In this document: piece by piece, positions 5,928 through 12,154 of the stretch | Position numbering within the stretch: the stretch's first letter is position 1 | Layout: each line of letters opens with the position of its first letter | Virus record (IMG/VR): IMGVR_UViG_2737471834_000009 | Origin: a virus | Taxonomy: Duplodnaviria; Heunggongvirae; Uroviricota; Caudoviricetes | Direction: 5' to 3' (one strand) | Length of the DNA stretch: 33,255 nt | Notes under the pieces: generated by a model | What the model was told of the DNA's origin: nothing | Databases searched by the model: none | What the model saw: only the letters and a program-made list of their open reading frames with translations | Program-made: the position numbers and the translations under genes

Positions 5928-5962
5928 TTGCATCAGTCCCAAAATGGGACTACTATACAGTT
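5928..5962 (+). promoter_or_regulatory. putative promoter with palindromic operator for the HigB/HigA-like pair
   Basis: -35 TTGCAT (5928-5933), -10 TACTAT (5951-5956), with palindrome GTCCCA-AAA-TGGGAC (5936-5950) in the spacer; predicted start site at or next to the ATG at 5963. Confidence 0.4.
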
Positions 5963-6265
5963 ATGAAGATTATCTCAGTTAAAACACTCAGGGATTTTTG
6001 GGCGGAGAATCCTGATGCAGAACAACCGCTAAGGGCATGGGTGGATGAGGCGGCAAAAGCTGACTGGAAAAGCCCAGCAGACATTAAGGCACAATACCGA
6101 ACGGCCAGTATATTGAAAAACCGGCGCGTGGTATTCAACATAAAAGGTAATCATTACCGTTTAATTGTTGCAATTGCGTATCAGCGAGGATGGGTATTTG
6201 TTAAATTCATCGGAAACCACAAGGAATACGATGCTATTGATGCTGATACCATCGAACTGGAGTAA
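5963..6265 (+). CDS. HigB-like toxin (RelE/ParE superfamily mRNA interferase)
   Basis: 100-aa product MKIISVKTLRDFWAENPDAEQ...VFNIKGNHYRLIVAIAYQ...FIGNHKEYD resembles HigB family proteins from memory; toxin gene precedes the antitoxin as in higBA. Confidence 0.75.
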   Translation: MKIISVKTLRDFWAENPDAEQPLRAWVDEAAKADWKSPADIKAQYRTASILKNRRVVFNIKGNHYRLIVAIAYQRGWVFVKFIGNHKEYDAIDADTIELE

Positions 6266-6267
6266 GC

Positions 6268-6627
6268 ATGAACATCAAACCTATTCGTACAGAGCAAGAT
6301 TATGAAGCCGCGTTGCGTGCTGTTGAACCCATGTTCGACAATGAGCCCGAAATTGACACGCCTGAGGGGGATTTTTTTGAGGTGATGTGTTTGCTAATAG
6401 AGGAATATGAAAAAAAACATTATCCCATTGAGCCACCATCCCCAATTGAAGCTATAAGATTTCGCATGGAACAGCAGGGGCTGACTGTGAAAGATTTGGA
6501 ACCCGCAATTGGGAAAAAAAATCGGGTTTATGAGGTGTTGAATGGTACCAGAAGCCTTACGTTACCAATGATTCGCCGTCTTCATAATCAATTTGGTATC
6601 CCCCTGGAAAGCCTGGTTGGATTATAA
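6268..6627 (+). CDS. HigA-like antitoxin, HTH XRE family
   Basis: 119-aa product with C-terminal helix-turn-helix (LTVKDLEPAIGKKNRVYEVLNGTRSLTLPMIRRLHNQFGIP); starts 3 nt after the toxin stop. Confidence 0.75.
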   Translation: MNIKPIRTEQDYEAALRAVEPMFDNEPEIDTPEGDFFEVMCLLIEEYEKKHYPIEPPSPIEAIRFRMEQQGLTVKDLEPAIGKKNRVYEVLNGTRSLTLPMIRRLHNQFGIPLESLVGL

Positions 6628-7120: not shown

Positions 7121-7162
7121 ATTACAAATAGAAGTTGAAATTTAAATTTAAATTTGTAATTA
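7121..7162. promoter_or_regulatory. putative OR-like operator/promoter region between repressor and cro-like gene
   Basis: Inverted half-sites TTACAAAT (7122-7129) and ATTTGTAA (7153-7160); the same half-sites recur at 5868-5918; candidate -35 TTGAAA at 7134-7139. Confidence 0.45.
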
Positions 7163-7192
7163 TCGGTGTCATCGTAAAGTTCGGAGGGAAAC

Positions 7193-7875: not shown

Positions 7876-7946
7876 CTCGCAATATTCATACCGGATCACT
7901 TCCGGCAATTTGTGAGTAAAAAGATTCGGTATCAAAAGAGGTGAGT

Positions 7947-9023
7947 ATGGCTAACGCCTGGCTCAGATTATGGCATGACATGCCAAATGACCCTAAGTGG
8001 CGAACAATTGCCAGGGTGTCAGGGCAGCCAATCGCAACGGTGATGGCGGTTTATGTCCACCTTCTGGTGAGCGCGTCACAAAATGTCACGACATGTCACG
8101 GTGTGTCACGACGAGGTCACGTTGATGTCACGGCAGAAGATTTGGCAAGTGCACTCGACGTGACAGAAGAGGTTATTGATTCAATTTTGCAGGCGATGCA
8201 GGGGCGGGTGCTTGATGGTGATTTAATCACTGGATGGGAAAAACGCCAGGTGTCGAAAGAAGACAATGGCAACATTTCACAAACTGCAAAAACCCCGGCA
8301 GAGCGCAAGAGAGCGCAGCGTGAGAGGGAAAAACAGCGGGAACAAAATGGTGATTGTTGCGGAGAAATATCACGCTATGTCACGGCATGTCACGACGAGT
8401 CACGCATATGTCACGATGAGTCACGACATGTCACGACAGATAAAGATAAAGATCTAAAAGAATTAAACCCCACACATAACGCGCGCGTGCGCGAGAGTGC
8501 TCCGACCAGTAATTCGACAGGCGCACCGTCGCAGACAACGGACCCCGAATACCTGGACGGCCTTAGCGAACCCATCGGGAAATTTCCGATGACTGATGGC
8601 TGGCATCCGTCGCTGGATTTTCGACGACGGGCAGCAGTGTGGGGAGTGTCCCTGCCTGAGCCGGAATTTACACCTGCTGAACTTGCCGCATTCAGGGATT
8701 ACTGGATGGCGGAGGGAAAAGTGTTCACGCAGGTTCAGTGGGAACAGAAATTTGCCCGTCACGTAAATCACGTCAGGGCGCAGGCTAAACCAGTCAGCAA
8801 GGGGGTGAACCATGCAGCAGCACCAGGTGGTACTGCATCACGGGCAGTCCGGGAAATTCGGGCAGCACGTGAACAGTGGGAGCGCGAAAACGGATTTATC
8901 CGCGACGGAAACGGCGTGGAAGCTGTGGGAACTCATGGGGGAGGTTTATTCGAACCGATGGACTCAGAAGAACGGGGCCGCACCGTCGAAACTCTGGATT
9001 GCACAGATTGGCGCGATGACTGA
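7947..9023 (+). CDS. replication initiator, lambda O-like (replisome organizer)
   Basis: N-terminal replisome-organizer-like region; two iteron arrays (TGTCACG repeats) inside the coding sequence followed by an AT-rich stretch; followed by a P-like gene. Confidence 0.8.
   Translation: MANAWLRLWHDMPNDPKWRTIARVSGQPIATVMAVYVHLLVSASQNVTTCHGVSRRGHVDVTAEDLASALDVTEEVIDSILQAMQGRVLDGDLITGWEKRQVSKEDNGNISQTAKTPAERKRAQREREKQREQNGDCCGEISRYVTACHDESRICHDESRHVTTDKDKDLKELNPTHNARVRESAPTSNSTGAPSQTTDPEYLDGLSEPIGKFPMTDGWHPSLDFRRRAAVWGVSLPEPEFTPAELAAFRDYWMAEGKVFTQVQWEQKFARHVNHVRAQAKPVSKGVNHAAAPGGTASRAVREIRAAREQWERENGFIRDGNGVEAVGTHGGGLFEPMDSEERGRTVETLDCTDWRDD
8073..8133. repeat. iteron array 1: five TGTCACG-type repeats at 10-11 bp spacing
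   Basis: Repeats at 8084, 8094, 8104, 8116 and 8126; one inverted copy CGTGACA at 8159-8165. Confidence 0.75.
8369..8470. repeat. iteron array 2 (seven (T)GTCACG repeats) plus adjacent AT-rich region: probable replication origin
   Basis: Repeats at 8369, 8378, 8388, 8399, 8409, 8420 and 8429 with about 10-bp period, followed by AGATAAAGATAAAGATCTAAAAGAATTAAA. Confidence 0.75.
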
Positions 9024-9477
9024 GCAGCAAATCCGGCAGGTCTGCGGACAGTGCATGGACCGTTGCCGGGCGGGTGAAACATGGCCCCCTGACCTGGCTG
9101 AATTTGTGGCGCTGGTTTCGGAAAGCGGAGCCAATCCGTTTGGTCTGACGGTGGATGCCGTGATGGAGGAGTACCGCCGCTGGAGAAATGAATCCTGGCG
9201 ATACGACGGGAGTGATAAATACCCGTGGCCACAGCCTGTGCTGTACCACATTTGCCTTGAGATGCGCACCAGAGGGATTGAACGTCAGATGACCGAAGGG
9301 GAGTTAAAACGACTTGCAGAACGGCAACTGACGAAATGGGCGAAGCATGTTGGTAACGGGATGAGTGTTCCGCCAGTGCGACGACAACTGGAAGGGGCGA
9401 AACACCCGCAAGGGCCAACGCCAATTGAACAACTGAAACAGGAATACGAACGCCGGAAGGCAGCTGGTTTTATTTGA
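8935..9477 (+). CDS. replication protein, lambda P-like (DnaB helicase loader)
   Basis: Collinear similarity to lambda P (WPPDLAEFVALV / YPWPQPVLYHICLEM / MTEGELKRLAERQL versus FLPSPGQFVAWC / YPWKSNAHYWLVTNL / LTDAELRRKAADEL); start uncertain: 8812, 8935 and 9016 are all in frame. Confidence 0.65.
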   Translation: MGEVYSNRWTQKNGAAPSKLWIAQIGAMTEQQIRQVCGQCMDRCRAGETWPPDLAEFVALVSESGANPFGLTVDAVMEEYRRWRNESWRYDGSDKYPWPQPVLYHICLEMRTRGIERQMTEGELKRLAERQLTKWAKHVGNGMSVPPVRRQLEGAKHPQGPTPIEQLKQEYERRKAAGFI

Positions 9478-11662: not shown

Positions 11663-12154
11663 ATGCAAATTTCACCGGTTACTCTTCGTGTTGCGAAGGC
11701 GTTTATATCCAGACATCACCGACACAATAAACCACCTGTTGGGCATAAATTCAGCATTGGTCTGATAAATGATGCCGGAGAATTGATAGGTGTGGCGACA
11801 GCTGGTCGACCTGTTGCACGACATTTGGACGATGGATTAACGCTTGAAGTAAATCGCACATGTACCACAGGAGAACGCAACGCTAACAGCGCGCTTTATG
11901 GTGCTGTCTGGCGAGCAGCAAAAGCTATGGGTTATCAACGTTGTATTACGTACACCCAGGCAGATGAATCAGGAGCATCTCTTCGCGCAGCTGGTTTTGT
12001 TCGTGTGAAAGAGCTTCCTCCAAGAAAAAGCTGGGCGGAATCAAGCGTCGCCTTGCGGAGTAAACGCGATCCGGTCGGAAACGGTGGTGTTCCTCGTGTG
12101 CTCTGGGAAATCAGGAGAATGAGTACCACTGGCATTCGCATCAAAGGAGAGTGA
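11663..12154 (+). CDS. hypothetical protein ending IRIKGE (possible small alpha/beta enzyme-like fold, unassigned)
   Basis: 163-aa ORF MQISPVTLRVAKAFISRHHRHNKPP...; translationally coupled to both neighbours; terminal codons encoded by junction element copy 3. Confidence 0.6.
   Translation: MQISPVTLRVAKAFISRHHRHNKPPVGHKFSIGLINDAGELIGVATAGRPVARHLDDGLTLEVNRTCTTGERNANSALYGAVWRAAKAMGYQRCITYTQADESGASLRAAGFVRVKELPPRKSWAESSVALRSKRDPVGNGGVPRVLWEIRRMSTTGIRIKGE
12133..12151 (+). repeat. junction element copy 3 (CATTCGCATCAAAGGAGAG)
   Basis: Same 19-mer; followed by TGA then ATATG start of the next gene. Confidence 0.8.

Follow-up and report, generated by a model that had tools for sequence, protein, structure and literature searches.

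Phage replication origins can lie within the gene of their own initiator. In phage lambda, ori is located within gene O; the N-terminal part of the O protein binds DNA and its C-terminal part contacts the loader (PMC6022878). Four 18-bp dyad-symmetric iterons are each bound by an O dimer, and the adjacent AT-rich region measures 39 bp (PMC6022878). In Bacillus phage SPP1, oriL is embedded in gene 38, which encodes the non-AAA+ replisome organiser G38P (PMC5737612, PMC6316719). It contains repeats bound by G38P, with an AT-rich unwinding element next to them; in vitro, a fragment of 356 bp is both necessary and sufficient (PMC5737612). Here, we analyse a 33,255-bp stretch of caudoviral DNA from IMG/VR (record IMGVR_UViG_2737471834_000009), hereafter the window. 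Its list of open reading frames (ORFs) contains a replication initiator (replisome organiser) gene of 358 codons at positions 7947-9023 of the + strand. We propose that region 8075-8472, inside this gene, probably acts as the replication origin of a Rac-like lambdoid prophage.

Related arrangements are known in other mobile elements. SaPI (staphylococcal pathogenicity island) origins contain penta- or hexanucleotide iterons in 6-12 copies, recognised by a winged-helix domain, plus an AT-rich region which melts without ATP (PMC9371898). The Rac prophage has been reported to have an active origin, oriJ (PMC3945230); its position at the sequence level was not found in the literature. Most temperate phage origins are unannotated, and the public records examined for the initiator family described here carry no origin feature.

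Results

Two phased repeat arrays lie within the initiator gene

The initiator ORF begins with the ATG at 7947, preceded by AGAGGTGA. Array 1 (8075-8132, + strand) is composed of a degenerate GTCACA at 8075 followed by five GTCACG hexamers starting at 8085, 8095, 8105, 8116 and 8127, with start-to-start spacings of 10, 10, 10, 11 and 11 bp. Array 2 (8369-8435, + strand) has the same construction: a degenerate ATCACG at 8369 is followed by six GTCACG hexamers starting at 8379, 8389, 8399, 8410, 8420 and 8430, with spacings of 10, 10, 10, 11, 10 and 10 bp. The gap separating the two arrays is 242-252 bp. It contains a single inverted copy, 33 bp past the final direct copy of array 1, where the exact 7-mer TGTCACG is found on the - strand at 8159-8165 (GTCACG at 8159-8164). 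For both arrays, the periods returned by Tandem Repeats Finder are 10, 11 and 21.

The initial annotation of the window, made from the sequence alone, had described five and seven copies of a 7-bp TGTCACG core spaced at one helical turn, one inverted copy between them and arrays about 250 bp apart. The inverted copy and the distance are confirmed. The copy numbers hold if one-mismatch copies are counted (six and seven when GTCACA is included); exact 7-mers number four in each array. Inexact copies deviate at the first base. The conserved core is 6 bp long; this hexamer is asymmetric (reverse complement CGTGAC), with a repeat period of 10-11 bp.

Counting both strands, the window has 26 exact copies of GTCACG, 12 of which fall within 8085-8435. 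The densest 360-bp stretch has 12 copies, as compared with a maximum of 4 in 300 shuffles of the window. With 12 copies in 350 bp against at most 4 in the shuffles, the repeats are far beyond chance. An exact-match search revealed no further GTCACG cluster elsewhere in the window. A lone extra copy is found at 8758-8763, in the coding part of the DnaT-like domain described below. It is probably a chance copy, because it is also present in the Rac-type prophage sequence Rac-SA53, which is devoid of arrays.

Within the arrays, the hexamers fall in each of the three reading frames and give CHD, (E/M)SR and VT. The repetitive CHD/SRH peptide segments noticed in the initial annotation are thus recovered. 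Because the hexamer is read in three frames, and because a period of 10.5 bp is no multiple of 3, selection appears to act on the DNA rather than on the peptide.

An AT- and purine-rich tract directly follows array 2

The tract ACAGATAAAGATAAAGATCTAAAAGAATTAAACC (8436-8472, + strand) is a predicted DNA unwinding element and encodes T-D-K-D-K-D-L-K-E-L-N. The GC fraction is 0.25 across 8428-8479. The least stable 40-mer of the initiator gene starts at 8440 and belongs to the top 0.2% of the window for instability, in agreement with the AT-rich stretch initially placed right after the second array.

Tracts of the (C/T)AGA(T/G)A(A/C)AGA... type are found directly after array 2 across diverse relatives of the initiator gene. 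These tracts have a purine fraction of 0.76 (0.53 in controls) and an AT fraction of 0.61 (0.41 in controls); purine richness with a 3/6-nt period is kept as much as AT richness. They encode charged low-complexity linkers such as DKDKD, TDTDTD or EKRREEK. Because comparable tracts follow array 2 family-wide, the AT-rich segment in the window exemplifies a conserved element. In four IMG/VR loci (L223, L228, L230 and L238) the tract is a perfect CAGATA or CAGATT repeat of at least 7-8 units, and the linkers are of the (DT)n or (DS)n type.

A GC-rich near-palindrome, CGCGCGCGTGCGCG, is located immediately to the right of the tract of the window, at 8480-8493, and is also present in Rac-SA53 ydaU. 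In lambda ori, an inverted repeat likewise lies to the right of the AT-rich region.

The arrays are conserved among close and distant relatives

The same arrays are found in E. coli prophages that are about 90% identical and in phages Evi and Tritos. A match is present in 2,605 of 5,426 complete E. coli genomes, and the IMG/VR contig UViG_2737471860_000009 has a 100% identical N-domain. Scanning the GTDB representative genomes for exact matches to 8350-8394 of the window gave no hit. Among 80 close IMG/VR relatives, array 1 constantly has 6 copies and the inverted copy is constantly at +33; the copy number of array 2 ranges from 3 to 9. Further away, the N-domains of Aeromonas phage pAEv1818 and of Pseudomonas phages phi1 and PACT201 are 68-71% identical to that of the window. 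These phages have 4 + 3-4 GTCACG at matching gene positions, with the inverted copy at +33. An alignment of 55 homologues shows that the commonest form is 4 + 3 copies. As compared with this usual form, array 1 in the subfamily of the window carries a 7-aa insertion (21 nt, two iterons), and its array 2 has additional units. In this alignment, expansion by pairs of units preserves the reading frame. Helical phasing between the two arrays was also considered and discarded: separations of 228-252 bp among relatives correspond to no constant number of turns.

The initiator gene with its GTCACG arrays is unannotated in the records of Pseudomonas phages phi1 (KT887557; locus L005, 2001-2890) and PACT201 (L006). 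A very large fraction of the family's NCBI entries are 'partial' (P0003, P0007, P0050 and others, from clusters of 222, 963 and 1,121 members), and draft E. coli assemblies are often broken inside the initiator gene. As a guess, several co-resident prophages may share this gene.

The family as a whole comprises 1,971 clusters at 50% identity, with members in E. coli, Aeromonas, Pseudomonas, Ralstonia and cyanobacterial phages. A further 160 diverse IMG/VR loci were fetched, of which 155 had enough sequence to be scored. Chains of one 5-mer spaced 9-12 nt were searched in the first 800 nt of the gene, and the 800 nt upstream of the same genes served as controls. Phased chains of at least 3 copies, located where the coding part of the N-domain ends, are present in 94% of the relatives (8% of the upstream controls), and chains of at least 4 copies in 76% (0%). 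In 45% of the relatives and in none of the controls, one 5-mer forms two chains, around nt 90-145 and nt 300-430. The cores differ between relatives and fit G-N-N-A-C-G (GTCACG, CGAACG, GTAACG, GTGACG, GCAACG, GAAACG, GGAACG). For example, in Ralstonia phage Hennie (38% identical) the gene carries GCAACG four times at nt 130-161 and four times at nt 401-431, inverted copies read CGTTGC, and a purine-rich tract comes after the arrays. Overall, almost every member of the family has array 2 and the tract, about half have array 1, and the two arrays are not equivalent. The inverted copy was rejected as a family-wide feature: it is found in 13 of 76 diverse loci having array 1, mostly in the GTCAC and GCAAC groups.

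Predicted domain organisation of the initiator

PHROG replication initiation families match the initiator. Close relatives bear the public names 'phage replisome organizer' and 'DnaT-like ssDNA-binding domain-containing protein'. AlphaFold2 predicts a confident helical/winged-helix domain, from residues 1 to 100 (coding part 7947-8246), then a long helix from 117 to 134, as seen in both models. This helix is basic (P-A-E-R-K-R-A-Q-R-E-R...; coding part 8295-8348). A stretch predicted to be disordered (136-201, pLDDT < 50) precedes a confident C-domain. Within the N-domain, the loop 46-62 has low confidence (pLDDT 55-64). Array 1 encodes residues 44-62, which form the loop between helices 3 and 4 of the N-domain, and array 2 encodes residues 141-163 in the disordered linker. 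Judging from these models, array 1 therefore encodes a surface loop, and array 2 and the tract encode a disordered linker, as in lambda O.

The sole Pfam domain detected is DnaT (PF17948), a single-stranded-DNA-binding domain, at residues 213-280 (coding part 8583-8786; E-value 1.3e-17). Foldseek matched the C-domain with DnaT 84-153 bound to single-stranded DNA (4ou6; E-value 7e-6, 56% identity, TM 0.88-0.92), and it also superposes on DnaT structure 6aeq. Equivalence with full-length DnaT was not found: NF002770 scores 95.5 bits for a cut-off of 201 bits and matches residues 204-293 only.

Weak NCBIfam and PHROG matches link residues 1-135 with DnaD-like families and with those of phage replisome organisers. 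For the phage replisome organiser N family (TIGR01714/PF09681), model TIGR01714 gives 22 bits with the N-domain, below its cut-off of 49.8. The family of the lambda O N-domain (Pfam Phage_rep_O) was not detected, either with the whole protein at E-values up to 0.01 or with residues 1-178 at E-values up to 10. As far as sequence can tell, the initiator is an analogue of lambda O in position and function and is not homologous to it.

Two residues of the basic helix co-vary with the repeat core

We aligned 144 non-identical N-domains and classed each of them by its iteron core. Two columns stand out, K121 (codon 8307-8309) and Q124 (codon 8316-8318), three residues apart in helix A118-E-R-K-R-A-Q-R-E-R127. 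Their scores are 0.77 and 0.74, respectively, and that of the runner-up column is 0.31. From this co-variation, the two codons are predicted to determine specificity. R120 and R125, in the same helix, are invariant among distant relatives. K121/Q124 goes with GTCAC(G/A) in 43 of 44 sequences. The other pairings (residues 121/124) are A/W with CGAACG, T/Y with GTGACG, S/(H,R) with GCAACG and K/W with GGAACG; G(A/T)AACG pairs with V121 and with F, Y or H at position 124.

The co-variation is seen at all levels of relatedness. For pairs of proteins that are less than 45% identical elsewhere and share a core, residue 121 is the same in 93% of cases and residue 124 in 82%. When the cores differ, these values drop to 10% and 3%. 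Conversely, pairs more than 70% identical with differing cores agree at residue 121 in 3% of cases and at residue 124 in 6%. Because agreement follows the core in distant and close pairs alike, overall relatedness does not explain the co-variation. K/Q with GTCAC is found in 5 separate 70%-identity clusters, and single clusters at this level hold several core classes. For instance, the initiators of the window (GTCACG, K/Q) and of locus L220 (CGAACG, A/W) are 76% identical. In most classes, codons 121 and 124 are outside the arrays, 45-70 nt upstream of array 2. Array 1 matches the core of array 2 despite lying across the winged-helix coding region.

These comparisons provide strong, if indirect, evidence that the repeats are read by the initiator, through its basic helix. 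A two-residue code, in which residues 121 and 124 of one helix would specify the variable dinucleotide of G-N-N-A-C-G, has in our view about an even chance of being correct. Under such a code the initiator, both arrays and the helix would change together, and we find it equally balanced whether this provides orthogonal origins for co-resident prophages. If they do change together, origin specificity would therefore switch repeatedly among proteins that are otherwise 70-95% identical.

The proposed origin region is flanked by a Rac-like gene order and shows a mosaic breakpoint

The next gene (9016-9477, + strand) encodes a helicase loader of the lambda P family (PF06992, Phage_lambda_P, E-value 1.5e-15; phrog_109, 'P-like helicase loader', E-value 2.8e-54). 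There is an 8-nt overlap with the initiator stop codon, and the identical overlap is annotated in E. coli RM8082. The upstream genes follow the order of the Rac early-right operon: a helix-turn-helix (HTH) repressor gene, which is on the opposite strand, is succeeded by ydaS and ydaT. A promoter and terminator scan found a divergent promoter-like pair at 7135-7172, as expected, and nothing notable within the proposed origin region. DnaA boxes were searched with TTATNCACA at up to 1 mismatch. No cluster was found (32 matches in the window for 27 expected), and there is no box within 7947-8600, the nearest one being at 7911-7919.

The N-terminal half of the gene and the arrays resemble those of phages Evi and Tritos. 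The sequence from 8438 on, which comprises the tract, the C-domain and the P-like gene, has about 90% identity to ydaU-ydaV of Rac-SA53. This mosaic breakpoint coincides exactly with the border between iterons and tract. Rac-SA53 YdaU has a DUF1376 N-domain and its gene has no GTCACG arrays, yet it shares the tract: GATACAGATACAGATCTAAAAGAATTAAACCCCACACA. In relatives, the N-module is paired with varied C-domains and with DnaB-, DnaC- or P-type partners. Such modularity fits the lambda logic, with the N-domain travelling with the origin and the C-domain with the loader (PMC6022878).

We also looked for phased iterons in Rac-SA53 ydaU. No clear array was observed, just an inverted repeat, TGTTCAAACA/TGTTTGAACA, and weak phasing of a 4-mer. 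The inverted repeat (L003, 2440-2500) is located just upstream of the shared AT-rich tract. Its two arms are candidate binding sites of the DUF1376-type initiator and may bear on the location of oriJ.

Two other features were noted in the window. A HigB-type toxin gene (PF09907, E-value 5e-33) and, after it, an HTH antitoxin-like gene occupy 5960-6627 and adjoin the prophage repressor gene on its left side. In the early region, ORF 11663-12154 weakly matches the Mom family (PF25680, E-value 5e-5, under the family cut-off).

Discussion

A probable origin within the initiator gene

The initial annotation considered that initiator-binding repeats and an AT-rich segment mark a replication origin. 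This proposal is strengthened by the presence of the layout in Aeromonas and Pseudomonas phages, by its recurrence with other cores, by the co-variation and by the neighbouring loader gene; origin activity is what we infer from them. From the sequence comparisons, the repeats are very probably the initiator's own binding sites. The further description as a lambda-type origin stands as regards the repeats and AT-rich segment inside the ORF and the P-family loader gene next to it. It does not extend to homology with O or to 18-bp dyad iterons.

The following mechanism can be proposed. A pR-like promoter near 7135-7163 would drive transcription of ydaS (cro-like), ydaT and the genes of the initiator and the P-like loader. 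Initiator monomers would then bind head to tail, on one face of the helix, at the GTCACG cores 10-11 bp apart. In each of them, the basic helix (residues 117-127) would recognise the site, K121 and Q124 reading the two variable bases of G-N-N-A-C-G, and the DnaD-like winged-helix domain would give oligomerisation and/or backbone contacts. A filament on the seven sites of array 2 may strain and melt the adjoining 35-bp AT/purine-rich tract (8436-8472). The DnaT-like C-domain could bind the exposed single strand and/or the P-like loader, which would recruit host DnaB, and theta replication would begin after DnaB arrival. Array 2 and the tract would constitute the core origin. Array 1, with its six sites and one inverted copy about 250 bp upstream, would be an accessory platform, possibly a looping enhancer or a control element.

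Several observations weigh against this interpretation. Among characterised origin binders, none is significantly similar in sequence to the N-domain. The closest fold, the N-terminal domain of DnaD, is known as an oligomerisation domain, not as a sequence reader. Homology of the N-domain to SPP1 G38P was not found either (BLASTP negative, hhalign probability 0.2). On the DNA side, the AT-rich tract is short, about 35 bp, array 1 is missing from about half of the family and the inverted copy from most of it. Residues encoded by array 1 and by the inverted copy (NVT, RGH, DVT) are conserved as protein too, and a protein-level reason is possible. Correction for phylogeny is incomplete in the co-variation test. 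The array of the CGAACG class extends into the helix-coding region, so that constraints on DNA and on protein overlap there. Finally, a search of the open-access full-text literature found no experiment on the initiator family and no account of a GTCACG-type origin, nor iterons associated with DnaT-like or replisome-organiser proteins that would match one. The 'Eru' paper on the replication-module types of Stx phages makes no mention of iterons.

Alternative roles of the arrays

Iterons can also serve control functions, and P1-type plasmids carry control iterons. The arrays bound by the initiator might mainly act in autorepression, as a roadblock to transcription or translation, or in handcuffing as in iteron plasmids, with replication starting elsewhere in the prophage. 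Two separate arrays of the same orientation do resemble the iterons that exert control in plasmids like P1, no AT-rich stretch adjoins array 1, and the co-variation speaks for recognition only and not for initiation. However, an unwinding-type tract always comes directly after array 2, the window is without a second GTCACG cluster, and the gene is placed as are the origins of lambda, P22 and SPP1, beside a helicase-loader gene. We consider it unlikely that control is the main role.

The repeats might otherwise result from a need of the protein for repetitive peptides, for example the CH(D/G) and SRH motifs of a flexible linker, which look metal-binding, the DNA period being a by-product. The high conservation of NVT, RGH, DVT and CHDESRxVT as protein in the GTCACG subfamily would agree with this. 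On the other hand, reading of the hexamer in three frames makes the peptides vary between copies, and the 10-11-nt period is no multiple of 3. Moreover, other subfamilies keep the DNA period and encode QGNADATRGN, ERNVTQCNA or VTPGDGGVTQGD, and the core co-varies with residues outside the arrays, the linker itself being predicted to be disordered. Such an origin of the repeats therefore appears extremely improbable. A purely genetic role, in which the tract and arrays would chiefly provide shared homology (a 'linker') for the exchange of replication modules and would have no origin function, is suggested by the breakpoint between a Tritos-like N-half and a Rac-like C-half, exactly at 8438, by the same GAT-A(A/C)A tract after unrelated N-domains and by the high mosaicism of the C-terminal domains. 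It leaves unexplained the helical phasing, the family-specific cores and the co-variation with two residues. Recombination is equally expected at an origin that separates two functional modules, and exchange and origin roles could coexist. Exchange without any origin function is thus very unlikely.

Implications

The proposed origin within the initiator gene could provide a sequence rule to locate origins in such genomes: a phased G-N-N-A-C-G array, then a purine/AT-rich tract, at the domain boundary of a replisome organiser. The two-residue co-variation yields a hypothesis, open to direct testing, of what sets and diversifies the specificity of initiators. This hypothesis bears on replication incompatibility of co-resident prophages and on lambdoid modular exchange. 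If true, the code would let origin specificity be re-programmed with two substitutions and a recoding of the arrays, and could be used for building orthogonal replicons.

Comparison with known origins

The closest parallel is with SPP1. In both cases the origin, a proposed one in the window, lies in the gene of the organiser, at the boundary between N- and C-terminal parts, and short direct repeats are followed by an A/T-rich element. In gene 38, the experimentally defined oriL region contains 11-bp-phased GAAACGACA/GAAAAAGACA units at nt 361-410 (L250, 5939-6040), then an A-rich stretch; the polarity of the repeats toward this stretch and their relative position are as in the window. The SPP1 core is of the GAAACG type, which is also one iteron class of the window family, and the C-terminal family of the SPP1 protein (PF09524) is also found in some relatives of the window initiator. 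The two systems differ in other respects. SPP1 has a second origin, oriR, elsewhere in its genome, and its own loader and helicase, G39P and G40P. No such distant origin copy was found in the window, where no other GTCACG cluster exists; instead, a second array lies within the initiator gene itself, the C-domain is DnaT-like and the loader is of the lambda-P type.

As in lambda, and in P22 gene 18 type modules, the initiator gene contains iterons and an adjacent AT-rich region, which code for a flexible linker. Also shared are the gene order, following a cro-like gene, and the overlap of a P-family loader gene with the end of the initiator gene. In contrast to lambda, the sites of the window are asymmetric 6-bp cores at one-turn spacing in two arrays, and the initiator is without a match to the O N-domain. 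Because the sites of the window are short, asymmetric and helically phased, SPP1 oriL is a closer functional model than lambda ori.

Rac shares the gene order ydaS-ydaT-ydaU-ydaV with the window, and Rac-SA53 has about 90% identity to it over the C-half of the initiator, the AT-rich tract and the P-like gene. It differs by the DUF1376 N-domain of YdaU and by the lack of GTCACG arrays. SaPI origins resemble the window region in having short (hexanucleotide) iterons and an AT-rich region, but there the iterons stand on either side of the AT-rich region, oppositely oriented and downstream of rep, and the SaPI initiator is itself a helicase. With E. coli DnaT, the C-domain, 56% identical and superposing on the single-stranded-DNA-binding domain, is the only shared part. 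In our reading, the proposed origin would work like SPP1 oriL and lambda ori, and its main interest would lie in the family-wide rule and in the two-residue specificity hypothesis.

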